From Octopus vulgaris (taxonomy: Eukaryota), in NCBI GenBank assembly GCA_951406725.2, contig OX597830.1:434001-498000 (forward strand): DNA of 64,000 nucleotides, in the 5' to 3' direction. The position numbers were made by a program, and so were the translations under genes. Below, piece by piece: positions 7,952 to 50,200 of this stretch (position 1 is its first letter; every line of letters begins with the position of its first letter). The notes below the pieces were generated by a model. It made no database searches and had not been told where the DNA came from. It saw only the letters and a list, made by a program, of their open reading frames with translations.

Positions 7952-8005
<54 letters not shown>

Positions 8006-10230
8006 TACTTATGCATATATTTGTGTATATATATTAGTCTAATATGTGGCACTTGATGAAGAATGGAGTTTGATATAGCTACCCTTATTTGCACCTCTTG
8101 CCGTGAGCTAGGCTCATCTGGGACTCTCAGCAGGAAGAGGTCCAGCTTTGATTTAAAAAACCCTACATCTTCTTTGTGCAAGTTCCTCAGACTCTTTGGG
8201 AGAATATTAAAAAGTTGTGGGCCCTTGCAGTAACTGGTGCTGAAGCGTGATGGCATTGCTGGGATCTTTGGTGCTATGCAGTGTCGTCCCGTTCTAGCAT
8301 TGGTGTGGCTTTCAATGCCAAAATTTGGCACAATTCCTTCCAGTATATTCAAGATATATATTACTGCATACCTCTCCTGTCTTCTCTCCAGGGAGTAGAG
8401 TCTTAGCTGTTTCAACCTTTCCCAGTAGCTGAGCTGTTGCAAAGAGACGATCTTCTTTGTGAATCTTCTCTGGATTGCTTCAACGTCCGCTGTTAATCTC
8501 ACACTGGTAGGTGACCATAGCTGTGAGCAGTAATCCAGGTGGCTGAGGACGAATGTCCGCCAGAGGACCATCATGGTTTCCTTATCTCTGGTTCTGAATG
8601 TTCTTAGGATCCATCCAGCCAGTCGTCTGCACTTTGTCGCCATCCTGGTAATGTGCACTTGGAAAGAGGTATCATCACTCATGTCGATACCCAGGTCCCT
8701 CACTGACTTAGGCTCTGGGATTGAAATTCCCTGTGGACCGGTGTACCCTGTAGGTTTAATATTCAGTTTTGGATGCTGGTAGCGCAGGGCCTGGAATTTC
8801 TCAGCATTAAACTGCATATTATTATCCTCAGCCCATCTGTAGATTGAGTCCAACTCCTGCTGCAGATGTGCAACATCGCTGGGGTTCTGTATTTTCTGTG
8901 AGACTTTTGTATCATCTGTATAGCTTGCAAGAGTGGCTATCCGGGCATTTGAGGGCATATCTGAGAGGGCCACTATAAAAAGCAATGGTCCCAAGACAGT
9001 GCCCTGTGGAACACCGCTCACTATTTGTGTGTTCATAGAGGTGGCTCCATTAGCCACTACTACCTGACTCCTATCTTTCAGGAAGTCATGTAACCACACT
9101 CCGAGTTTTCCAGCTATGCCAAGGTCACGCAGTTTGTGGCATATCATACCATGATCCTCCTTGTCAAAAGCTTTTGCAAAATCAAGGTATATTACATCGA
9201 CATTTGATTTGTTGAGCAACTGCCTCAACATCCAGTCATAATGTTGTAAGAGCTGGGTCAGGCAGCTCCTACTTGGTCGGAAACCATGTTGGGTATCACT
9301 TAGCAAGTTATTTTTTTCAAGGAATGCGATTAGTTTCCCTTTCATTATCCGTTCCATGACTTTGCTGATGTGTAAAGTCAGAGAGATAGGCCTATAGTTT
9401 TGGGCATCTGCTCTACTTCCCCATTTATGTATTGGGCATATTATTCCCTCCTTCAGCTTGCTTGGCAGTTTGCCATTTGTAAGAAAGCTCTGGAAGAGAA
9501 TCTTGAGGGGTTTTGCCAGGGCATGTTTACACGATTTGAGGAAGATTGCTGGGAAACCATCAGGACCAGCAGCTGAGTTTCTGTCCACTTCATCTCTGGC
9601 TAGTAGTACATCTTCTTCACTAATGTCAATGTATTCTATTGTAATTGCCTCGCTGGTTATAGGTGAGGCGGCAAAGAAGTCCACTGGTTCGTTCACTTGT
9701 CTGTGTTCCAAGGGGGTGGTAAATACACTTTTGAACTGGTCATTCAATATCTCACTGATCTTAGCTGGACTGTCTGTGAGGGAGCCATCCTTTTGGAGGA
9801 GGGGTCCTATCTTGTAGTGCACTGAGGCTGTTTCTTCCGCGTAATGAAAGAAGGCCTTTGGGTTTGACTAAATATTTTTTATAACCCAGGCTTCTTTGTC
9901 TGCCTTCTCCCTCACATAGGATTGTTGCAATCTTTTTTCGATCTCTATCAGTGTTGCTTTTAGGCGGGACGTTTCGCTGCTTTTGGGATGTTGGTTGAGT
10001 CGATTTGCAACCTTCGTCCGTCATCTCATGAGGATCTTCCTATCTCTTGGAATCTTGCTCCTACTTGTTTTGGCCTGGTGCTCCAGGACATATTTCTGGC
10101 ATACGGCTTGCACGGAAGACATGAAACATTCTAGTTTCATGTCAATGTCTGGTATGGAGAGACATTTCGGCCAGTCCTCTCTGAGGATCTCTTTTGGGAT
10201 CAATTTCCAATCTGCTTTGTGAAAGTTCAT
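7740..10230 (-). mobile_element. 5'-truncated CR1-group/Proto2-like LINE with frameshifts
   Basis: ORF2 fragments from NFHKADW (10230) through the RT. 3' tail GGCGGTGCATCAGCATGGCCGCAGCTCTTGGCTGGAAC on the minus strand at about 7755-7796, separated from the ORF by AT repeats. Confidence 0.9.
8005..9822 (-). pseudogene. LINE ORF2 reverse transcriptase domain (605-aa open segment)
   Basis: NYRPISLT, QHGFR, YLDFAKAFD, GVPQGTVLGPLLF, YTDD (YADD variant), LYSLERR. Upstream part frameshifted; C-terminus runs into microsatellite. Confidence 0.9.
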
Positions 10231-13252: not shown

Positions 13253-13703
13253 TGGTTCTGATCCTAAATACGGATGCATAAGAGGCAATGGATGCACCTT
13301 ATTCCATCCTAAACTGTGCCAAACTTCTGTCTCACAAAGGATGTGCCTGAACCCAGAATGCAACCACCACCATCTGAAGGGCACAAAACGATCACAGAAT
13401 AGATATAAACAGGAACAGAGGAAATCTAGGACAACAACAAGAACAAAATACAACCACGTCTCCCCTCCTACAATCAAACAACGTAGACAGAACCATGAAA
13501 AAACACCAAATAACGCCAACTTGAAATATGTATCCTCTGACCAAGTGGCAAACCAAACAAGCAACTCTTTTTTACTGACATACCTGGAAAATATGAAGGC
13601 CGACCTAAGCCAGGAGATCCAGCGAGCCATCACCAACCATCTATGCAAATCACAAGGACCACTCACCCATTACCAACTTCCGTTACCTCGACATTCCTGT
13701 TAG
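13253..13703 (+). CDS. LINE ORF1 C-terminal part with tandem CCCH-type zinc fingers (5' end missing)
   Basis: CIRGNGCTLFHPKLCQTSVSQRMCLNPECNHHHLKGT. The N-terminal part of the predicted 13098 ORF is microsatellite read-through. Confidence 0.7.
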
Positions 13704-16651
13704 ATGTACGTGGCATCAACCCATCAATTATTGCCCAAAAATGGAAGATCCCATATATAGAGAGTTGGCTTGTCGAAATGGCACATTGCTTCCCTTTTTT
13801 TATCCTTACCGAGACTCACCTGAACAACACCCATATGGACGCAGAGGTGAAAATAAAAGATTTCACCATTGTTCGTGCGGATCGCACAGACCGAAATAAG
13901 GGAGGGACAGCCATCTTTATCCATGACTCCTTTTCACTTGATGCCAAGGACACATTTTCCAATGGCTACTGTGAATCGGTATCACTATACAACAAAGCCA
14001 AGGACATAACCATTGTTGGTCTTTACAGGCCTCCCCAGGCACATCTAAAGTACTTTGAAGAGTGCCTTAGCAAAGTCAAGTCCTTCCTTCGGAAGTACCA
14101 CTCCGGAAACATACTAGTGATGGGTGATTTTAACCTCCCTCATGTGAACTGGCCCACAAATACTCCGAAGTTAGGCAAGTGCTCTACATCAGATAGGGCA
14201 GCAGCAGAACTGCTCTCTAATCTGATGGATAAGTATTTCCTGACTCAGCTAGTGCTTGAACCAACGAGACGGAATAAAACGATCTTGGATCTGGTATTGA
14301 CCAATCACTCTAGCTACGTTCACAGCATTTCAGTCGAAAAAACTCTCCTCTCAGACCACGACATGGTACTCTGCAATCTTAATTCCCGACATATAAAAAC
14401 CAAACCAGCCAATCCCACTCCATGGCACCCATTTGACAACATAAACCTCCACAAAGCGGACTGGGGAACAATCAGAAAGGATCTGTCTTCCATCGACTGG
14501 TCTTTTACTCTCAATTCCCCTCATATTGAGACCGCGTGGCAGCACTTTGAAAACATTGTCACCTATACATGCTCTAAATACGCTCCCAAGAAATCTACTA
14601 ACACAAACAGAAACCGGCTCCCTAAAAAGAAAAAAACACTCATCAGGCGCATCAAAAGACTCAACAAAAAAATCAACCAATTAAAATATTCCCACACACA
14701 ACATCCACATTCAACAACAATGAAAAGACTAGAGCTGGAAAAACTTCATCTGCAGACTAACATGAAAACCTCCATTGAAAATCAAAGAGCTGTGGAGGAA
14801 CAATGGGTAATCAAAAACATCAAACAGAACCCAAAAGTGTTCTATTCTTATGCAAATAAGCATAGAACCACTGTCTCACCCATTGGGCCATTGATTGATG
14901 ATAACGGCTTTCCCCAACACGATGCTAAAGAAATGGCAGAAATACTGCAGAAACAATACTGCTCTGTCTTCAGTGTTCCCACTGATATTGACGTGAAGGA
15001 AACGAACGAAGTTGACTCCCAACACAAAATCGCAGACATAACCTTCACTGCCACCGACATCGTAGCAGCAATAAATGAGGTCAAACATTACTCTGCTGTA
15101 GGCCCTGATAGATTTCCCGCTAGTCTCCTGAAGGAATGTAGATATCAACTTGCAGTCCCTCTGACCAACCTCTGGAGAAACTCGTTAGACGCAGGTTATA
15201 TACCGAAACAGTTTCTATCCCAGTCGGTCATCTCGGTTTTCAAACAGGGAAACAGATCCCTCGCACTCAACTATCGCCCAATCTCACTCACCTCCCACAT
15301 CATTAAAGTGTTTGAAAGAGTGTTAAGATCAAGGATAGCTGACTTCCTGGAGACCCACAAACTCCTAAATTCAAATCAGCATGGCTTTCGCTGTGGCAGG
15401 GACTGTCTAACACAGCTCTTACACCACATTGAAGATGTACTCAAAGCCTTGGGAACAGGATCGAACTCTGACGTCATATATCTTGACTTCAGTAAAGCGT
15501 TCGACAGGGTAGACCATAACATCCTACTCTCGAAATTGGAAAATGTTGGAATCCGTGGAAAAGTTCTACACTGGATTAAGTATTTCCTGGTGAAAAGAAC
15601 GCAACATGTTGTAGTTGATGGAGTCCACTCAAACCCAGCAAAAGTCACCAGCGGTGTTCCCCAGGGAACTGTTTTGGGTCCGCTACTCTTCATAATTTAC
15701 GTAAACGACCTTTCCAGTGTCGTACATCACTGCAAAGTGAAAATATTCGCTGATGACACTAAGCTCCAGCAAATCGTCAATGAAGAAGCAGACCGAACTC
15801 AACTCCAGTCTGATCTATATGCTGTGAGTCAATGGGCAGACAGAAACAAAATGCAACTGAATGAGGGAAAATTTGAGCTGATGCATTTTGGAAGAAATTC
15901 CTCACTAAAACAACCATACTCTCTTCCTTCAGGGGAACCGCTCACAGCCTCTAACAATATCAGAGACCTGGGTGTAATTGTTGATGACGATCTCAGTTGG
16001 AGTGCACACATCAACAAGAAGGTTGATATAGCTCGTAGGATGAGTTCCTGGATCTTAAGAACTTTCCGGTCCAGAGAACAAGGTGTCATCATACCACTTT
16101 TTTCCTCCTTTGTACGGCCACACCTTGAATACTGCTGCCCACTGTGGTCTCCTCACACAAGACAAAACATCTCCAGAATTGAGTCACCCCAGAGGGCTCT
16201 CACTAAACAAATTGAAGGCATGGCTGCTCTCGATTATTGGGATCGCCTTAAAACCTTGAAACTTTACTCCCTCCAGCGTCGCCGTGAGCGGTACATCATT
16301 TGTACGATGTGGAAAATATACCGCCAACTTTGTCCAAACGACCTAAACATTAGCTTCAAGGTTCATCCAAGACTTGGACCACGGGCTATACGTCCCCTGC
16401 CAAATTCAAGATCACAACATACATGTACACTGCAACATAATTTCTTTTCCTCAACAGGCCCTGCCCTATTTAACATTGTCCCGAGGGAGATCAAAGAGGA
16501 AAAGGATCCCATCAACTTTAAACAGAGTCTGGATAGATTCCTTCAAAGAATACCAGATAAGCCACCCATAATTGGATACAACTCACCCAACAAGAACTCA
16601 CTACTTGAACAAAACTGGATACAACTCACCCAACAAGAACTCACTACTTGA
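13643..16651 (+). CDS. LINE ORF2: APE endonuclease + reverse transcriptase
   Basis: Uninterrupted 1002 aa. APE motifs: LTETHL, GLYRPP, MGDFN, ILDLVL, SDH. RT motifs: NYRPISLTS, QHGFR, LDFSKAFDRVDH, GVPQGTVLGPLLF, FADD. Confidence 0.95.
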   Translation: MQITRTTHPLPTSVTSTFLLDVRGINPSIIAQKWKIPYIESWLVEMAHCFPFFILTETHLNNTHMDAEVKIKDFTIVRADRTDRNKGGTAIFIHDSFSLDAKDTFSNGYCESVSLYNKAKDITIVGLYRPPQAHLKYFEECLSKVKSFLRKYHSGNILVMGDFNLPHVNWPTNTPKLGKCSTSDRAAAELLSNLMDKYFLTQLVLEPTRRNKTILDLVLTNHSSYVHSISVEKTLLSDHDMVLCNLNSRHIKTKPANPTPWHPFDNINLHKADWGTIRKDLSSIDWSFTLNSPHIETAWQHFENIVTYTCSKYAPKKSTNTNRNRLPKKKKTLIRRIKRLNKKINQLKYSHTQHPHSTTMKRLELEKLHLQTNMKTSIENQRAVEEQWVIKNIKQNPKVFYSYANKHRTTVSPIGPLIDDNGFPQHDAKEMAEILQKQYCSVFSVPTDIDVKETNEVDSQHKIADITFTATDIVAAINEVKHYSAVGPDRFPASLLKECRYQLAVPLTNLWRNSLDAGYIPKQFLSQSVISVFKQGNRSLALNYRPISLTSHIIKVFERVLRSRIADFLETHKLLNSNQHGFRCGRDCLTQLLHHIEDVLKALGTGSNSDVIYLDFSKAFDRVDHNILLSKLENVGIRGKVLHWIKYFLVKRTQHVVVDGVHSNPAKVTSGVPQGTVLGPLLFIIYVNDLSSVVHHCKVKIFADDTKLQQIVNEEADRTQLQSDLYAVSQWADRNKMQLNEGKFELMHFGRNSSLKQPYSLPSGEPLTASNNIRDLGVIVDDDLSWSAHINKKVDIARRMSSWILRTFRSREQGVIIPLFSSFVRPHLEYCCPLWSPHTRQNISRIESPQRALTKQIEGMAALDYWDRLKTLKLYSLQRRRERYIICTMWKIYRQLCPNDLNISFKVHPRLGPRAIRPLPNSRSQHTCTLQHNFFSSTGPALFNIVPREIKEEKDPINFKQSLDRFLQRIPDKPPIIGYNSPNKNSLLEQNWIQLTQQELTT

Positions 16652-24329: not shown

Positions 24330-26545
24330 CATGAATACTTTTGAATATATGCCAAACTTTTACCACAATAGAGGGAGGAAAAGAAATTATCCAGAAATAG
24401 TTTAATATTTATACATATCGTACACTTAAATACTAACTCATCAGATGGTAGCTGTGAATATTGATTAATTGGTATATACTGGTATTAATAAAGGAGTTTT
24501 GAGGTAAAAGGTCATGCTAATTATATATTAATAAAATTTTAATCTTAGCAGTGTTTGTTTTAATAGTGAATATGCCAATATAGTTGTATATAAGCTAAGT
24601 ATGAATTTATAGAGATACAAAAATTAGATTAATTTTATAAATAAATAAAGGCTAACTATAAAATAATAAAGAAATAAAATAAAATAATCAAGTAGGGCGG
24701 AACATCGTAGAAAAGGAAATAAAATAACTTAATTACTAACACTATGGTAAAGTATATGTAGCTTATTAACACCAATAGAGAAGAGTTTTAGAAAAAGTAT
24801 AATAATTCAAAATATATTAGACTAAAAATTATATATTTACTTATTTAGCTAATATCAATAAAAGTCTGATGTCTGGTATCAGCTAAAGGAATATTTAAGC
24901 TATGGAACAATCATATTTTACAATAATCTTTTTTTAAAAACTAAGGGTTATATTATAAGTTTAAGAAGTTATTATTGCTACTCCCTACATGATATTTATA
25001 GCTTCTTAGTGGCACTTGTTTAGATGGTTATTCATATAAAGGCCCTTATCAATACTAAGATCAGGAGGGTAGAGCCATTTAAGAAAGAGATAAATCAAGT
25101 AATTTCTAAAGATCATTTCAAGCAATATTGTCTTATTGGATAAAGTTAAAATTTAGGGTAATCAAGAAGATTATTAAGAATGAAATTTTAACAAAAGGAT
25201 AAAATTTCTTTGAATATCTTGAATATATACCAAATTGTTTACCACAATGGAGGAAGGAAAAAGAAAATTGCAAAGAAATATTTTAACATTTATTTACTTA
25301 TTACTTATCTAAATATTAACTTATTATATGGTTTCTATGGAGATTAATCAATTGGATTTAACTGGTATTTAATAAGGGAGCAACTGAGCTTAAAGAACAT
25401 GTTAATTATATAATGATTTAATTAAATTGCACTATTTTAAGTTGTTGAGATACCGGTATTACCTTATATAAGCTGAGTTCGAATTAATAGGGTTACAAAG
25501 ATTAGATTTAATTAAAATAATAAGAATAATAATAATAACAATAAAATGATCAGTTAGGGTAGAGTCTCATAGAAAAGGAATAAAAACAGCCTAATCACTA
25601 AAAACCATAATAAAATATCCATACCTTATTAACTTCAATAGCAAATATTTATAGAAAATGTATAATAGTTTAAGTATTATGATTTAAAAATTGTTAATTA
25701 ACTTATTTAGCTTATTATAATCAAGACTGAAACCCGGTATTGGTTAAAAGAATAATTGTTGTTAAAAGGACATTCTAATTATATAGGTGAGAGAACAAAT
25801 TTACTATAAATTAGTTAAATTATAATCTAAGCAGTTTAATTTTAAGTTGTGAACACATCCATATTGTTCTTTTATAAGCTACGTATGAATTTAAAGGGGT
25901 ACAAAAATTTAGGTTTGTCTAAAGGCAATTATAAAGTATTAAGGATATAAAATAGCTTATAAAGAGAAAAGGATATAAAATAGCTTAATCACTAGAATCA
26001 TGATGAAGTATATATACAACTTAGTAACTTCAACAGAGAAGATTTATAGAAAATACGTAATAATTCAAATATTTAAAACTAAAAATTACTCTTTTACTTG
26101 TTTGAGTCATTTGACTGTGGCCATGCTGGAGTACCGCCTTTAGTCAAGCAAATCGACCCCAGAACTTATTCTTTGTAACCCTAGTACTTATTCTATCAGT
26201 CTCTTTTGCTGAACTGCCAGGTTACGGGGATGTAAATACATCAGCATCAGTTGTCAAGCGATGTTGGGGGGACAAACACAGACACACAAACATATACACA
26301 TACACACACACACATATATATATACACATATATATATACACACATATATACGATGGGTTTCTTTCAGTTTTCGTCTACCAAATCCACTTACAAGGTTTTG
26401 GTCGGCCGAGGCTATAGTAAAAGACACTTGCCCTAGATGCCATGCAGTGGGACTGAAACCGGAACCATGTGGTTGGTAAGCAAGCTACTTACCACACAGC
26501 CACTCCTACGCCTATATTGTTTATTTACTTAATTAGCTTGTATCT
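24330..26545 (-). repeat. Diverged ~0.88-kb tandem duplication (about 2.5 units), possibly decayed PLE RT
   Basis: 24340-24530 resembles 25218-25412; 24590-24850 resembles 25467-25715 and 25870-26087. The third unit is split by a SINE and resumes at about 26516. Confidence 0.6.
26088..26515 (-). mobile_element. Full-length tRNA-derived SINE with internal (TG)n and LINE-type 3' tail
   Basis: Minus strand TAGGCGTAGGAGTGGCTGTGTGGTAAG head, CORE-like GGGCAAGTGTC, internal microsatellite, tail GGCGGTACTCCAGCATGGCCACAGTCAAATGACTCAAACAAGTAAAAGAG. Confidence 0.88.
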
Positions 26546-27779
26546 ATAATGATACCCAGTGTTAATCAAAGGAATATTAATTTTCTTCTTCTCCTTTCTT
26601 CCCTTCTCCAAACTCACAGACATGCACACACACACACACACCTCCACAAAACAATAATAAAAAAAATTTTCTTCTCTAAACCCAAAATCCATTTGACCAT
26701 CCGTCATTAAACACACACACACTCTCACAATGATAAAAAGGAAACATAATTTATGGTCTACCTCCTGGCCACCGCTCACTCAATAACATTATGAAATGGT
26801 CAAAACTGAAATTCTTTTTCCCCAAGATCTTAGAACCCCCTTGAAGTAAGCATCCTGTCCAGCAGGACAAACAAATTTATTTTTTCTTCTTTCCTCTCCT
26901 TTCCCCTCTTTTTCTTTAGCACCTCTTTCAAATACAAGCAAACACACACACACACACACACACATGTTCTCTCTCTCACTTTCTCCTCATCCATCACCCT
27001 CTTGTACTGTCTTCCCCACCACTACAAGCTCAATAACACTATAAAATGGTCAAAACATTTCACCCAGGAACTTAGTTTGATTTGAAAACCCCACTAGAAT
27101 GGGAGAAAGCGCCAATACATGATCTAAGTTATATGATGTATAAAAACATGTAATGTACAAATAAATATCTGTAAATATAAAACCATCCGAATTTCTGAGT
27201 ACCTCATTTCTTCTAAGATATATATATATATACAGAGAGAGGGATAGGGAGAGAGAGAGAGAAAGAGAGCATAGAGAAGTATTGTCCTCACAAGAGTGTA
27301 TGCATATTACATGCTTTCAATTTTTGTCCTTGTGTGTTATGCAGTTGATAGAATTCTTAGTCACATAATCAGTTCCCCTCCCGATTCCAATGGAATATCG
27401 GAGTTTAGAGAAATAATGGAAGTTGGCCATTACTTTAAAAATGGGTCGAGACTCATTGCAATTGTGTAGACTGGAATAACATATAATGAAATATCTTGCT
27501 CAAGGACTCGACACGTTAACTGGTCTGAGAATCAAAAGAATGTTCCTCTGATCAAGAGCCAGCCCCCTAACCATTTGGGCATGCATGTTTATGCCTGCAC
27601 CAAACATATACTTAAAACTTACATATGCATATATTCCAAAATATACATGTAATGTATTTACATATAATTAAAATTAATTTTTATACTTCAGTATGTATAT
27701 ATATAATTATGCAAATGCACACACACACTTATGAATGTATATTTGTGTATGTGTGTGTGTGTTTATATGTGCATCTATG

Positions 27780-27820
<41 letters not shown>

Positions 27821-27845
27821 AGGTTTGGAGATGACGTACAGGTAT

Positions 27846-27961
27846 TATATATTAGAAGAAATGAGGTAATCAGAAGATCGGATGGTTCATATTTACAGAT
27901 ATTAATATCTGTAAATATGAACCATCCGATCTTCTGATTATCTCATTTCTTCTAATATATA
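27846..27961. repeat. 116-bp spacerless palindrome (PLE-type pLTR end duplication)
   Basis: 58-bp arms centred at 27903/27904 with one mismatch; a diverged single copy of the arm is at about 27164-27222. Confidence 0.85.
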
Positions 27962-28024
27962 TGTATATATATATATATATATGAAAGAATGGAGTCGAAC
28001 GAAGATGTTAACAAAATTCCTTTA

Positions 28025-28106
28025 CTCTCGACATATGTTTCGAAGACCACATGGTTTCATTCCAAAGGAATAAAGGGTGTATGATGCAATCTTTTCATCA
28101 GGAAAG
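28025..28106 (-). ncRNA. Type I hammerhead, inverted copy (G10.1-to-A substitution)
   Basis: Same as the 28641 copy except CTGATGA-AAAGA, which breaks the first stem II pair. Confidence 0.7.
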
Positions 28107-28640
28107 AAAGGGAGCCTCTCTCGGCAACAAGACAAACAAAAATTTCGATGACTGTCTACATGGTAAACAAAACGACAATAAGTTAGATTGGCTCATACAG
28201 TCTGTATCCTTTCCTTTTGATAAGGGCAGGAGATTTTGTAACATTTGCAACTCTGAGCTCTTCCATATCCTCTTCTCTAAGGTTCCCCTTGTAAACACAC
28301 TCATAGAGAAATCCTATAAATGTAAGCACTGGCAGAAACATACTTTTTACTCTTACAAATGATTACGATAGGCATCGTGCTTTGAACAATTAGCTTAACA
28401 TACGCTCCACTTCAATAGTGAAATTCTTTCCTAAGCCTTTGAACATTCTTAATCAACAAACCCTTCTCTTTCCACTGGTTCCCTACCTATCATTCCTTTA
28501 ACCCTTCTCTTCCTACTATCTAACTTTGACGTAAAATCTTCTAACGGTTTTTAAAAAAAAGTCACTTATTGTCGTTTTGTTTACCATGTAGACAGTCATC
28601 GAAATTTTTGTTTGTCTTGTTGCCGAGAGAGGCTCCCTTT

Positions 28641-28722
28641 CTTTCCTGATGAGAAGATTGCATCATACACCCTTTATTCCTTTGGAATGAAACCATGTGG
28701 TCTTCGAAACATATGTCGAGAG
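28641..28722 (+). ncRNA. Canonical type I hammerhead ribozyme
   Basis: CTTTC-CTGATGA-GAAGATTGCAT...ATGTGGTCTTC-GAA-AC ATAT GT-C-GAGAG. All core nucleotides present, G10.1-C11.1, 11-bp stem II with wobbles, palindromic stem/loop III (ACATATGT), GUC cleavage after 28717. Stem I extends (CCTTT/AAAGG) past a U bulge. Confidence 0.85.
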
Positions 28723-29234
28723 TAAAGGAATTTTTTTAACATCTTCGTTCGACTCCATTCTTTCATTTATTCATATATAACACACAAATTCCTGCAAATG
28801 AACCCGGAGTTTCTAACTTTGGACAGGTCGCGTCAACCGTATTTCTGACGCGAATTTGCTACCTTGGTATCGGTTCAACGAATTTTCCATGCTGGCGATA
28901 AACATAGAATAATTCATTCACCTATTGAAATATATATATATATATATATATATATACCATCTATTTAAAGTTATTAAATCTGACAGAAAAAAGCATGTAG
29001 TTTGGCTAATATATTCGGTAGCACACTGGGTCGAGTAAACAGAGAGGTGTGGGTTCGAGTCCCGCGCTTACGGGAAGACCTCCATTTTTCTGTCTCGGCT
29101 TTATAAGCCCCATTATTAGACTATTTTCTTTAGTCATTGTGCAGTGTCCGCTATAAGCTTTAAGCTAATAAAATACTATTATTATTATTTACATAATTGT
29201 AAAAACCGGCACTGCTTTACAAAAACATTTGCAG

Positions 29235-29286
<52 letters not shown>

Positions 29287-29849
29287 TGTGAGTGTGTACT
29301 ACCTCCTCTGCTAATCTTAAAGAGATTTGCTCGTGTATTTATTATCAATATATTTGTCATGTGTCTTCCATAAACCAATATTTACGGTGAATGGCCGCTT
29401 GCAACATTGATACTAGCATACAGATAAAGATCTAAAGATTGATAACAAAATGATGTTTGAAGTGAAAATAAAACACACAGTCAATAGTTTGGTACTGCAA
29501 TAAATTAAATGGTAAAAGCACTTTGCTAGAACGAAGCATGAACAAAAATAACAATACAGAAGAAACTGACTGCAACACATATATAAAATGATCATACAAT
29601 CAAACCAATTCCAGTTTGCAGTGGAAACATACACATACATATATATACACACATGCGTACCTTCATATATACATATGTGTGCATATATGTTTGTGCATAC
29701 AGACAGAAACATACACTTCGTCTTCTTTTCCTACTCCTTCTTCTTCTCCTATTCCTTCTTCTTTTCCTCCTCCTTCTTCTTTCTCTACTCCTCCTTCTTA
29801 TTTCCTCTCCTCCTCATTCTCCACCCTTCATGTCGAGGAGGTAGCAGTC

Positions 29850-30320
29850 GTCACGATGGATGAGCCCTTCATCTCTACGACCCGACCGAAGAAGGCACGA
29901 CATAGCTGCAGCTCATTCAAGAGCATACGGATCCTTGTTTTCGTTGTCCAAGGTTTTGGGCGTCAAGAATTCGTCCCAAAGGACAACCGGACGGTCAATC
30001 GAGAGTTTTACAGCGATGTGTTGAGCGTTTGAGGGAGGACGTTCGCCGAAAGCGACCGGATTTGTGGAGCGCGAAGTATTGGATTCTTCAAGACGACAAT
30101 GCAGCACCCTGTCACCGGGCTCCACCACTCCTAACCCTAACCACAAAATCAACACCGTATCGTTTCCACACCCACCCTATTCGCCAGATTTAATACCTGC
30201 AGGCTTCCATCTCTTCCGCAAGACGAAAAGGCAGCTAAAAGGTCACCATTTTAACATCGATTTTGAATCGCAGAAGGTCCTCGATTCGCCTAAAGAAAAC
30301 GACTTTGAGGCCGGATCAGT
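29850..30320 (+). mobile_element. Degenerate mariner transposase fragment
   Basis: RPKKAR...EFVPKDNRTVNREFYSDVL and HPPYSPDLIPAGFHLF (mariner YSPDL motif); frameshifted. Confidence 0.8.
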
Positions 30321-30324
30321 GAAA

Positions 30325-30630
30325 AAGAGAATACCTACGCTGAACTATTAAGAAATATGCAGTTACTCTATCCAGTTCAGGTTTATACCTGTAATTATTG
30401 GGGCCTTGGGATATGTAACATACTGCCTAAATAAATCTTGCGAAATTAGTCTTCTCAAAACCAGAAAGGAGAAAGCTAATTCGAAGACTACAGATCCGAT
30501 CCATGACCGGAACTGGAAAAACCTGTAAGACTTTCCAGAAGTTTATCATTGAAATAGATATGAGCATGTCTAGATAAACAAGTATATGCGTGAGAATACA
30601 TACACAAAGCAAAACATGCGGATCTGCACG
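30325..30630 (+). mobile_element. 3' end of an RLE-type (Dong/R4-like) non-LTR element
   Basis: YAELLRNMQLLYP...FIPVIIGALGYV...KLIRRLQI...CKTFQKFII resembles the RLE C-terminus; runs into (CATA)n. Confidence 0.6.
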
Positions 30631-35817: not shown

Positions 35818-37218
35818 TATATATAAGATAGTTTGTATGTGTGTGTGTTCCCTATGCAGTCCAGAACCGAGTTAACGATTTTGACGTATGAGATATCAAA
35901 AGATTCAACTAAACTAAACTACCAACTAAACTTTGTTTTCATTCACATATTTGCATTATAATATTTCCCATAAGTCAACTATCCTAAACATTTCATACGT
36001 CGACGACGACGACGACTACCAAGACCCCACATTTTCTATATGAATGTGTACCTTAAAAGACATCCATCATCAAGGCACACACCTTCATTCATTCACTCTG
36101 CCTCTCTCTTTCTCTCGCACACACGCATGCACACACACGCACACGTCCATTTCATATACATATACATACATCTTTCATTCCTCATCTTCTTCAATTTCGG
36201 CTCCCTCCCTTTTCGCCTTCACTTTTCTTTAAATTTCTGCTCTCTTCAAAGCATAAACAAATATTTTTTTTATGGAATGAGCGAGAGAAACACAGAATGA
36301 GAAAAAAAAGACAGCGAGACATGAGGAAGAAACGAAGACAGAAAACAAGTTTCTATAGGAGAAGATGAAAGACATGTTAGGTATCCAGTTGAATTTTTCA
36401 TCTCTATACAACCCATAGGTCTTCCACTAAAGAAAGGTGCACCTGTCATGCTTTTGATGAATTTGGACCCACCACGACCAAGCAATAGTACAAGATTGAC
36501 TGTAACTACAATGACAAGTGATGTCCTAGAAGCCACCATTATTGCCAGCTGCCATCAAGGAGAGATCGCATACATGACACGCATGCCCCTTATTCCCTCA
36601 AATATGCCATTTCAATTCAAGCGCCTCCAGTTTCCAGTGCGATTGTGCTTGGCTATGACAACAAAGCCTAGGGTCAAAATTGTGGGTCTCAATTTACAAG
36701 TACCCTACTTTTTTTCCTATGGACAACTATATGTCACGTGCTCTCGAGTTAGCAGTGCAGATGACTTGTATATTTATTCTACCAACACTGGACTTCCGCA
36801 AAACATTGTTTACCCAGGAGCATTGTTGGCTTCACTTCACATGCTGAAAGTGTGCAGTCTGCCCAAACATCACTGAGATGGTACGTTTCATAATGAAGCA
36901 TCTCTCTTTCCATCTACCTTATTTTCTACAATACGGATGACTCTACGTCCTCACACGTCCTCCAGTTTTTACTTCTGTAAGTCTAGGTAATTTGGGGGGT
37001 GGGATAATGTTAGGATTTCGCTCTAATCTAAGCTACCATTCTACATGTTTCTGGTGTCAAAAATTTCAGAATTAGTCATCACAAAATTACAAAAATACAT
37101 GTTTATACGAAGAGTTTTTGCTTCACACTCCTCTTGTGCCGATTCTGCCCATAAGAAACAAATAATACAATGTCGCTGTAGGTCATAATACCCGAGCAAC
37201 GCCGGGATGCATTGCTAG
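35818..37218 (+). mobile_element. Deleted Helitron retaining the Pif1-like helicase C-terminus
   Basis: 3' hairpin CCCGAGCAACGCCGGG (37191-37206) plus CTAG|T (37215-37218); helicase remnant inside. Confidence 0.85.
36420..36830 (+). pseudogene. Helitron RepHel Pif1-family helicase C-terminal fragment
   Basis: LKKGAPVMLLMNLDPP...RMPLIPSNMPFQFKRLQFPVRLCLAMT...YGQLYVTCSRV...NIVY; conserved motifs partly mutated. Confidence 0.9.
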
Positions 37219-47254: not shown

Positions 47255-50200
47255 ATTAAGTTAAGTTAATTTTTTGGCTCAAAAAGCAAAAAGCAAAAAG
47301 CAAGGCCATGTAGGGGGACGTGGAGTTATGTACAGGGAGAATGTTCATGTAAAGAGTTCAGGCCACTTGTGGTCAAGAGAGACTTTGAACCGAGCGGTCG
47401 TCGGCATCTTCACTATCTCATCCGGCAGCTTATTCCACGGATCCGCAACCCGGACGGAGAAAGCCCCTCTCCTTCGATTGAGATGAAATCGTCGCAGATA
47501 GAGCTTTTCGGAGTGACCACGCAGCCGACGCTCTGGAGCAGGAGTGAAGAACAGCTCTTTTGAGAGGTTACACTTTCCGCTTATGATGTTGTGAGCGAGA
47601 ATGAGATCACCACGGCGTCGTCGTTTTTCGAGAGAATAAAGGTCGAGCGTCTTCAGCCTTTCTTCATAAGACAAATTCTTGAGACCATGAACCATGCGGG
47701 TAGCCAGCTTCTGGACTCTTTCGAGATGATGTATGTCTTTGAGAAGATAAGGAGAAGAGGCTTGAATCCCGTACTCCAATATGGGTCTCACCAGTGTGAC
47801 ATAGAGCGGTAGGAATATGGCTGCTGTGAGCATTCCGAATAACCGTCGAATCAAAAACAGAACACCGCGTGCTTTGTTGGCAGCATGGACGCACTGGGCC
47901 GAAGGCGAAAAGGAAGAATCCACCAAGATACCCAGGTCCTTTACTAGGTCGGTCTTCTCCAGCAGCAGACGACCCGGCTCGAAATCAAGTTGAGTTGTAG
48001 GAGAAGAGCCAACAGGCAGATGACAGCACTTTGACACGTTCAGGCACAGTTCCCATTCGTTAGACCATCTCCAAACTTGGTGAAGGCATCGACGAAGATC
48101 ATCTATATCACCGCGAGGAGAGACCAGTTTGACATCATCGGCAAATAGAAGGGTGTGTTGCGTGATCGTCGGGAAAGTCATTTATGAAGACTAAAAACAA
48201 TAACGGCCCAAGCACTGAACCTTGAGGCACGCCACTGCTCGCACTGGAGACGTCGGACAGCGAACCATTAACTTGGACTTGGAAGGAGCGATCTGAGACC
48301 AACCCATCCTACAATATCCGGATGGAAACTATATGCTTGAACCTTGACAAGTGATAGGCGGTGGTTAACCCAGTCAAAAGCTTTGGCAAAGTCCAATAAA
48401 ACGATGTCAGCAGCATCACCATCATCCAGGATACGCATCACCCATTCTTCCATTACCAGTAAGTTGGTTAAGCATGATCTCTTCGGCACGAAGCCGTGTT
48501 GGGAATGAGAGATAGAGGCTGAGTTTTAGAGGTGGAGCAACATACTTTTCTTAAGGATGGTTTCGAACATCTTGCTGATTATTGAAGTAAGGGAAACCGG
48601 TCGGTAGTTAAGCAGGTCTTCGCCGCTCCCATTTTTGAAAATTGGGCAGATTATCGCCGTTCTCCAGTCCGCAGCTATAACACCCGTCGCCAATGACATA
48701 TTGAATAGAAGTGTTAAAGGTTCGCGGATGACCGGAGCCAACGCTTTGATAACCTGTGTTTGTATGCCATCAGGGCCGTGACCCTTGTTGACATCGAGGC
48801 CTCGAATAACGCGTTCGACTTCGTCTCGAGTGATGACCAATCCAGGCATTGGAGGTACCGATCTATCAAATGGAGGGGGTTCACGACCATCATCTTGTTT
48901 GAAAATAGTTGAAAAAGCCTCGGCAAATAACTGACTCTGCTGATAAGGGTCCTCAATCGATACGCCTGTTGAGTCTACCAACGTTGCAATTTGGTTGTTC
49001 AAGCGGGAATTCCGTTGGACATGGGCAAAGAAGGTTTTTGGATTGCGACTGGTGTTTGCCGCGATTCTGTATTCATATCTGAAGCGTTCTTCCTTTTCAA
49101 TTTTCACGGCTCGGTCTCGTTGAGTTTTGTACACCTAAAAAGCTGCAGTCGAATCTTGATTTTTGAATTCAGCCCAAGCAATATCTCTGAGTTGAAGTTC
49201 TCGTTTAACCTTCTTCGTCACCAAAGGCTTGTGTTTCTTCTTGGGACGCCCAACGGGAACTACGTGCTCAGTCAACTAGATTACATATGCTTTGAGGGAC
49301 GACCATAGTTCGTCAACTGAGGACATCGTCATCAGGGATCGCCAGTCCAGAAGCGCGGAAGCCTCGGTTAGAATTTCAAGATTGATTGCAGAGAAGACTC
49401 TACGTGGCAGCGAAGTAGTCGTGGGCGTAGAAAAAGTTGTGTGCATGTCGAACTTCAGGACCGCGTGATCACTCTTGGCAAGAGGGGCGCACTCAGATAA
49501 GCCTGACACTGATCTTGGATAGCGGGAGAATACCAGATCCAGCATAGATGACTGCTCCCCAGACCGATGCCTTGTCGGAGATTCAACACGTTGCGATAGA
49601 GAACAATCTTCAGCCACGTCAAGAAGGGCCTGGCCAAACCGGGAAGATGATGTACAAATTGATGCGGGCCAGTCGATCGTGGGAGCGTTGAAGTCTCCTA
49701 ATATCAGTCATGAGAAGTTGAAACGAATCTTATCGCTTTGAGTAAATGAGCATCGTCCTGGGGGTCGGCAAGAGGCGGCCTGTAGACAGCTAACACGGGC
49801 AGGCAAAACCCGGATAGGCTCAGCTTGCAATAGACGGCGTCGAATTTTGTTGTAGGTTGAGCATTATTGGGTAGAATACTGCTGGACGGTTTGAGATCAG
49901 ATTTGACATACAAAGCAACACCTCCACCTCGCCTTGTTTCTCTGTCACATCTGAAGAGGTCGTAGCCCTGTAGGTGGATTTCCGATTCCTTTACTGCTGG
50001 AGTCAGCCAAGTCTCGGTGATAGCTATCACATCTGGGGAATCACGCATGGCCAGTGTAAAATAATTCGCTGAACTTTGGAAATAAGGAGCACAAGTTTGT
50101 ATAGACGATGCTGAGCTGTGAAGTTTGAGGGGCGAGAATTAGGGAACAAGGAGAATAAGGGATATCAGAGATAGCATCGTTGTCGGGGGTATCTACTTTA

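Follow-up and report, generated by a model that had tools for sequence, protein, structure and literature searches.

The mirrored ends of a hammerhead-bearing insertion in Octopus vulgaris: element identity, two end sites and a candidate mechanism of insertion

In a 64-kb stretch of Octopus vulgaris DNA (the whole of which is called the window here), an insertion between TA repeats ends in two inverted arms that carry a hammerhead motif on opposite strands. This layout raises the question of what kind of element was inserted, and of how an insertion comes to end in a mirror image of itself. The first-pass annotation, made from the letters alone, proposed a non-coding, non-autonomous, retrozyme-like family, and also placed its origin in Penelope-like elements (PLEs), with an inverted 5' pLTR and a hammerhead of the dimer type. 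Our analysis supports the latter part on all three counts. The former is wrong, in that the middle of the insertion is endonuclease (EN) coding sequence and the copies of the family are nested 5' truncations of one RT-EN element. The origin of the inverted ends and tails of PLEs, the purpose of their hammerheads and their microsatellite targeting are questions that Craig et al. (2021, PMC8557442) name as open. Comparisons with published systems refer throughout to those passages of the cited papers that treat the feature in question.

Anatomy and identity of the insertion

The insertion is made up of the following parts, in which short and long denote the two sites at which copies of the family end.

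27962..27980, no strand: (TA)n target, left flank
27981..28183, minus strand: inverted, 5'-truncated copy of the element's 3' end (pLTR), ending at the short site (end class S); 203 bp with 2 mismatches
28030..28101, minus strand: left hammerhead, from core to cleavage triplet; G10.1>A at 28094, so that stem II is without its closing G-C pair; likely impaired
28180..28183, no strand: 4-nt microhomology AAGT at the head-to-head junction, from comparison with the family copies L059 and L009
28180..28362, plus strand: end of the RT-endonuclease ORF, last 60 codons and stop, with the CxxC..E..N..CxH of a Hydra-type GIY-YIG domain (motifs as given in passages of PMC8557442)
28363..28563, plus strand: the element's 3' untranslated region, which occurs in a single orientation; its matches in other copies are continuous with ORF and pLTR
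28564..28766, plus strand: right arm, the pLTR portion whose mirror image forms the left arm
28636..28728, plus strand: type I hammerhead with a long stem II containing an inner hairpin and a palindromic stem III (28709-28716); cut predicted between 28717 and 28718
28766..28779, plus strand: short end site, AT-rich, where about half of the family's ends join (TA)n
28767..28930, plus strand: one-sided tail, with about 155 nt from one end site to the other; forms the 5' leader in the following tandem unit and stops about 50 nt short of its AUG
28866..28915, plus strand: 5' strand of the basal stem, and inner hairpin, of a predicted pre-AUG structure, folded on run-through copies; the window is without the 3' strand
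28925-28933, plus strand: long end site, in the predicted unpaired loop of the leader structure
28931..28956, no strand: (TA)n target, right flank; a target duplication is unreadable within the repeat

The two arms (27981-28183 and 28564-28766) form the best inverted repeat of the window and differ at exactly two of their 203 positions (28094/28653 and 28012/28735), in agreement with the roughly two mismatches first reported. The left arm meets the element body through AAGT, a microhomology between two unrelated positions that forms no palindrome. The sequence between the arms had been described as holding no recognisable protein, which is incorrect: 28180-28362 (+) encodes the C-terminal 60 codons of an endonuclease and its stop. 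Positions 28180-28359 are 95% identical to a family copy (L051) with a 476-aa RT-thumb/EN frame, the end of which the 60 codons match, and 50-57% identical to ORFs of about 900 aa in two further copies (L088 and L091). The motif CNIC..E..N..CKH is present in the window itself, and in other copies the middle of the insertion continues upstream into one long frame. From the shared frame, the 60-codon C-terminus, the junction and the flanks it follows that the 3' 750 bp of an RT-EN element, together with an inverted 203-bp copy of its end, lie in a TA tract. As regards the identity of the element, the locus is almost certainly the 5'-truncated 3' end of an RT-endonuclease PLE of Hydra type, with an inverted terminal copy, in (TA)n.

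As an insertion the locus is ordinary, a single dead copy among about a thousand matches, and the combination of inverted end and one-sided tail is a known, published architecture. First-look searches gave 1,451 candidates for the arm and 1,490 for the middle, of which 40 each were scored, and an exact 26-mer had 1,011 matches in the genome where its control had none. The insertion can be called young, as it was at first, only loosely: the arms are 1% apart, and the nearest other copy is 97.8% identical over 587 bp.

Elsewhere in the genome the ORFs of the family carry QSDKT, a YxG..R..H nuclease motif and CxxC-E-N-CxH, with no CCHH, and IYQC..YIG..KRISNH..E..N lies in one frame with the RT. 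The RT is absent from the insertion in the window, and its comparison rests on the ORF of L091, which belongs to a sister subfamily. For a predicted model of this ORF the top Foldseek match was telomerase RT (E 1.1e-8); with VIA, telomerase RT gave Z 16.6 (rmsd 2.7, 261 aligned), tied with DGR RT at 16.4. Pfam returned no RT or GIY-YIG match, either for four proteins or for 16 aligned proteins, and a PDB sequence search returned 0 matches. The endonuclease call rests on motifs and alignment, because the single-sequence model of the EN domain is too poor to carry it (pLDDT 39.8). That Pfam and Rfam both miss the family matters for annotation.

The window's own subfamily showed no full-length open ORF, the longest among its 150 best EN matches being 615 aa, and at 90% identity the longest open frame is 785 aa. 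A search with the N-terminal part of the RT gave at least 150 matches, many of them lying in open frames of about 900 aa (identity about 65%); in sister subfamilies, open ORFs of this length and tandem arrays are both present. In one such array (L090/L091, C1:119.514-119.525 Mb) the unit is 3,624 bp, with four same-strand hammerheads and frames of 899, 867 and 899 aa; this subfamily looks recently active, because many near-identical 899-aa frames occur elsewhere in the genome. Partial tandems were found at L080, L081, L083, L084, L086 and L094. Unit lengths range from 3,176 to 3,683 bp, and same-strand hammerheads, in the 120 of 128 loci that have a hammerhead, are spaced 3.2-3.7 kb apart, with 1.1 kb at one site and never 150-450 bp.

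At L078/L092 (C20:23.326-23.354 Mb) about seven RT matches lie 3-6 kb apart in both orientations, and the hammerhead core is mutated in the copy read. Older related subfamilies with a longer stem II, often as opposite-strand pairs of hammerheads, account for L099-L128 and for 505 pattern matches (control 2), the pattern being one that leaves out the spacing found in the window and takes in related subfamilies whose stem is longer.

Place among Hydra-type and other Penelope-like elements

The family shares with the C-terminal EN+ PLEs of the Hydra clade, as these are characterized in passages of PMC8557442, a single ORF with RT followed by EN, the DKT motif in place of DKG, CxxC and CxH around E and N, and the absence of CCHH. 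It also shares their pLTR hammerhead with a short self-complementary stem III and their insertion into (TA)n. The Repbase entry Penelope-13_HM, as presented in the same source, is a 5'-truncated inverted copy with a hammerhead on both strands, which is the layout that had been described in the window as an antisense twin. In contrast to the clade, the CxCX5C linker was present in 0 of 26 distinct linker segments of the family, as compared to 83 of 86 homologs with the EN motif (drawn from 106 homologs found), and its place is taken by a tract of 100-190 aa, mostly rich in Asn; in Adineta, too, inserts rich in Asn have been reported between RT and EN (excerpts of PMC3846280 and PMC8557442). At the aligned place of the N-terminal motif the family has RWL, not RWK, and the homologs show RWK, RWR, RWA or RWM. 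The unit of 3.2-3.7 kb differs from the length of generally under 3 kb given for the clade, and the 11-bp stem II with its inner hairpin differs from the 3-7 bp and short loops of the Hydra motifs listed (both in sections of PMC8557442). Hydra-1_Obim, from the same listing, is distinct from the family in that it keeps the linker and has another hammerhead.

Since these defining features fail, we file the family as an EN+ PLE and as a Hydra-derived variant, not as canonical Hydra. The EN+ PLE features found in it are a telomerase-related RT (from the L091 model), GIY-YIG motifs in the same ORF (at the motif level), tandem or partial-tandem pLTRs, a pLTR hammerhead, an inverted 5' copy, and one tail in 34 of 36 head-to-head pairs.

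The sequences suggest that the linker was lost in the lineage of the family. A quick tree with 58 of the 106 homologs (midpoint root, one long branch of 1.21, composed without a named Hydra reference or outgroup) unites six family ORFs (SH-aLRT 100) with a truncated protein from Argonauta and two homologs that have the linker. The nearest outside homologs, P0001 and P0002, keep the linker finger, and P0001, with an Asn-rich insert at the same place, is a possible intermediate before linker loss. The linker is tied to microsatellite targeting, as a hypothesis, in PMC8557442 (discussion of targeting); in the octopus family the finger is absent, yet the ends still abut (TA)n, which suggests that the enzyme may recognise TA repeats without help from the zinc finger to which this role has been attributed.

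In the literature searched, neither a linker-less Hydra-type family nor a counted rule for pairing short with long ends was found described; since Repbase and Dfam lay outside this search, the family may already be catalogued. In excerpts of an octopus repeat paper (PMC13282606), Penelope-like families are named without clade or ribozyme.

The hammerheads and their templates

The right arm contains, in order, the 5' strand of stem I (28636-28645, pairing with 28718-28728), CUGAUGA (28646-28652), an 11-bp stem II (28653-28663/28695-28705) whose loop holds an extra hairpin, GAAA (28706-28709), the palindrome ACAUAUGU (28709-28716) and C17 at 28717. At the motif level this bears out the complete type I hammerhead with palindromic stem III that had been called there, together with its predicted cleavage site. 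The minus-strand motif of the left arm was likewise recorded correctly as having a single change in stem II: G10.1 is A, and the conserved G10.1-C11.1 pair is broken. A-to-I editing as the cause of this mismatch between the arms was rejected, for the family state is G and it is the left arm that changed to A. Elsewhere in the family stem III retains its palindrome, as ACATATGT, as ACACGTGT or shortened to ACATGT, and other copies have a G-U form.

To call the hammerhead canonical was generous. Its core and stems are present, but the Rfam search that had been proposed for it gave no hammerhead family in 26500-30500 at E<=10, only chance miRNA hairpins, and the motif alone has a folding energy no better than that of shuffles (z -1.39). 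The proposed covariation analysis was favorable. In an alignment of 22 subfamily sequences the cells that pair make up 88.1%, two-sided changes occur in 10 of 30 pairs, and the covariation score of 0.231 exceeds both shuffles (0.168+/-0.011) and slid controls (0.065-0.101). Because most rows of this alignment were picked by the core pattern, invariance of the core within it is circular, and conservation was therefore examined again in copies that a protein search had retrieved. Eleven subfamily representatives, hand-picked from 33 rows, agree at all 11 core positions, whereas the invariant positions number 5 of 72 for the 5' flank, 17 of 53 for stem II together with its loop, and 19 of 38 for the 3' flank; in this selection the core is better conserved than its flanks. 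Some of the rows left out of the 11 carry core mutations, as expected of dead copies.

When two copies of the hammerhead are co-folded, the predicted structure is a dimer whose cores are free and whose 8-bp stem III forms between the molecules (-54.6 vs 2 x -23.6 kcal/mol); in the context of the entire pLTR, stem I has only a small predicted chance of forming (P 0.015). In these models stem III is stable only between two molecules. The dimer form was proposed for metazoan PLE hammerheads (PMC4209133), and the PLE hammerheads assayed in PMC4209133 and PMC11167929 were weak, dimer-dependent or protein-assisted. The hammerhead of the family is predicted to cut only as a dimer or with the help of a protein.

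At the locus the two hammerheads sit on opposite strands, and it can therefore give rise to neither a cis dimer nor a circle; the circles considered possible at first were not borne out, there being one sense hammerhead per strand. Only if the locus were read through would the hammerheads, by prediction, be buried in long dsRNA, with 202 of 203 arm positions paired and stems I and II abolished. The hammerhead at this locus is most likely an inert passenger.

In the 26-mer set none of 39 arms begins at the ribozyme cut, the nearest start lying 20 nt upstream. Since both start sites lie downstream of the cut and no arm begins there, the copied RNAs were uncut at the hammerhead or had been re-joined. 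At one locus (L064, C18:19.3407-19.3442 Mb) the arms share two variants absent at all other sites, one of them in the GAAA of the hammerhead core, which hints either at an RNA with a dead ribozyme as template or at the copying of one arm from the other. Family contigs were found among the assembled contigs of four runs guessed to be RNA; they are mostly less than 95% alike and are uninformative on ends, strand, level and locus.

Two end sites and the origin of the mirrored end

Copies of the family stop at two sites, the short (28766-28779) and the long (28925-28933), and their AT-rich ends overlap the target. At 57 sites we counted 39 short and 38 long ends. Among 24 head-to-head pairs, 22 combine a short with a long end and two a short with an intermediate end, while none are alike (p about 5e-7 at 50:50, or 2e-6 with three related sites on C29 counted once). 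A second set of 23 sites, taken from the first 30 matches to the 26-mer on contig 1 and picked only by the 26-mer, gave 14 of 14 pairs as short with long, 12 of them new. With both sets joined, the combination of short and long holds in 34 of 36 head-to-head insertions and two alike never occur; the long end is found on either arm. (TA)3 adjoins 67 of 77 ends in the first set and 35 of 39 in the second. The rule is limited to head-to-head pairs with two termini, because inverted pieces from the body of the element, without a terminus, are present at at least 8 sites among 39 loci inspected, and because the second set has two exceptions, one site with two short ends facing and one with both ends on one strand. 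Of 15 testable pairs, only 4 have arms that resemble each other more than they resemble any other site, and the two arms may have been copied from one RNA molecule or from two.

The three related sites (L053, L054 and L062, all on C29) have a common inverted junction, in which a long arm from 28804 is fused to the RT core, and L053 and L054 share a flank. They represent either a segmental duplication or a re-mobilised composite copy, and are not independent in the pair count.

The long site lies about 50 nt upstream of the next unit's AUG. Folding of run-through copies predicts, in 11 of 11 cases, a basal stem that closes just before this AUG, a hairpin inside it and, left unpaired, a stretch rich in A, C and U within which the long site falls. 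Folding of the leader gave z scores of -3.6 to -7.2 in four copies tested, and its consensus, from nine sequences, has two-sided changes at 4 of 21 pairs. The loop resembles the AC-rich RT-start loop of a PLE of Anolis (described in part of PMC11167929). Two other readings of this region were set aside. The long end is not the start codon, which lies further on, and a candidate 77-nt 5' intron (GT..AG), a feature that some EN+ PLE families retain in the leader, gave way to the stem as the likelier reading because its acceptor is not conserved and its apparent donor is explained as one strand of the conserved stem.

Complex insertions of Pen2a_Av, as outlined in passages of PMC3846280 and PMC8557442, likewise consist of a head-to-head inverted 5'-truncated copy with a tail on one end and microhomology at the junctions; the one-sided tail published there is 30-40 bp and reaches into the ORF's beginning, whereas that of the octopus family is about 155 nt and lies wholly in the 5' leader. 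For the Anolis element PAc (Poseidon), the sections of PMC11167929 on insertion report cutting of both strands with extension, two internal RT start sites, and a hammerhead that is protein-assisted and dispensable. PAc and the octopus family are alike in having two internal start sites, in an A/C-rich loop, that define a tail, an AT-rich target and an uncut RNA template. They differ in clade and in the position of the sites, which are upstream of the AUG and about 155 nt apart in the octopus family; moreover, for PAc no homology between start site and target was found, whereas the ends here show AT overlap with the target.

Read together, the ends point to an enzyme that likely begins to copy from two fixed places, one for either end of the cut. 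A tandem or partial-tandem master would be transcribed through its 3' pLTR into the leader of the next unit, and the RT-EN protein would bind the structured pre-AUG leader and nick both strands of (TA)n. Of the two 3'-OH ends, one could then prime from the long site (28925-28933) while its partner used the short site (28766-28779), with AT microhomology a probable aid, on a template that was uncut at the hammerhead or re-joined. Both cDNAs would stop early, after 750 and 203 nt here, and be joined head-to-head through AAGT. We hold with good confidence to the explanation as a whole, that of a truncated RT-EN PLE insertion with its mirrored end made through a cut in both strands and two fixed start points; the insertion mechanism taken by itself is probable. 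A more specific version is tentative and, on present evidence, rather doubtful: an asymmetric RT-EN dimer on one uncut RNA would prime the two cut ends at two obligatory sites about 155 nt apart, one of them in the conserved pre-AUG loop, and TA targeting would come from the nuclease and from AT pairing between RNA and target, not from the lost linker finger. If true, this version would show how PLEs insert, and the open tandem copies of about 900 aa would be a ready in vitro system for the Hydra group.

The mirror arm could instead have arisen by fold-back self-priming, or by template switching on an antisense template, and not by priming at both ends of the target. Fold-back was proposed for rotifer Penelope junctions with palindromes (in passages of PMC3846280), and both the body-derived inverted pieces and the private variants shared by the arms of L064, which fit copying of arm from arm, speak for it. 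The junction in the window, however, is a 4-nt microhomology and not a palindrome, and fold-back offers no reason why the mirror arm should have its terminus at the other of the two fixed sites, as it does in 34 of 36 pairs, with either arm able to be the long one; we consider it unlikely. Far less probable is that the arms stem from a later DNA event, such as inverted duplication or gene conversion, or from two independent insertions into one TA tract. Such an origin would suit arms that are 99% identical and a family that piles into TA tracts, but no TA tract lies between the arms, the pairing of short with long holds over 36 sites, and in 11 of 15 pairs the arms are as distant from each other as from the nearest other copy, which speaks against recent conversion.

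That the insertion belongs to a non-autonomous, non-coding retrozyme- or MITE-like family moving as a 950-bp unit and making circles now has scarcely any probability. The right-arm hammerhead is intact and the family abundant, and retrozymes are reported as derived from PLE pLTRs (in part of bioRxiv 10.64898/2026.07.22.740005); non-LTR retrozymes, as described in sections of PMC7229834 and of that preprint, resemble the family in being animal, AT-rich, of many copies and endowed with a type I hammerhead. They encode no protein and consist of hammerhead-bearing units of 150-450 bp repeated head to tail, with the ribozymes on a single strand, whereas here the middle is EN coding sequence, each strand has one sense hammerhead and the unit exceeds 3 kb. 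No inverted arm joined at the 28180 position was seen among the other loci fetched, which also argues against a mobile 950-bp unit, and a retrozyme as defined in those sections is excluded by the absence of short tandem hammerheads in the 120 of 128 loci. We give equally little credence to recruitment by the host of the hairpin RNA or ribozyme, whether as dsRNA for editing or small RNAs or as a transcript end. The pairing predicted for a read-through RNA would fit such a use, but the anatomy is ordinary, and each arm carries one mutation, one of which falls in the conserved G10.1. Stop-to-stop ORFs of the window are mainly pieces of retroelements and simple repeats, a survey in which short exons would be missed.

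With a truncated RT-EN PLE copied from two fixed start points as the preferred reading, the family is modestly useful for its strict short and long pairing, its candidate start-site RNA structure, its uncut templates and its apparent linker loss with TA preference kept. Each of these features gives a direct test of a question raised in the passages of PMC8557442 cited above, and open ORFs exist for it. To what is published the family adds the counted pairing rule, the long tail, a structure that may mark one start site, and an apparent loss of the linker, which puts the published targeting hypothesis to the test.

Other repeats share the window. Immediately to the left, 27813-27961 is a minimal head-to-head copy of a second, younger family, an older copy of which lies near 27000-27232. 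Copies of this family are 98-99% identical, roughly 200-300 bp long and set in (TA)n, with 1,755 first-look candidates. In the copies seen there was no element ORF, and a simple pattern found no hammerhead near the end. Inverted pairs were present in 6 of 11 other copies fetched, with a tail of about 38 nt on one arm only, and the family looks like a protein-free element moved by a PLE. LINE-like endonuclease/RT frames lie at 8005-9867 (-), 13541-16651 (+) and 47345-50138 (-), comprising 620 aa, 1,036 aa and fragments, respectively. A 183-aa frame at 36325-36876 (+) resembles what we take to be a piece of a PIF1-type helicase, as in Helitrons. The short stretch at 29028-29160, with a B-box-like motif and a TAT repeat at its end, is a possible SINE.
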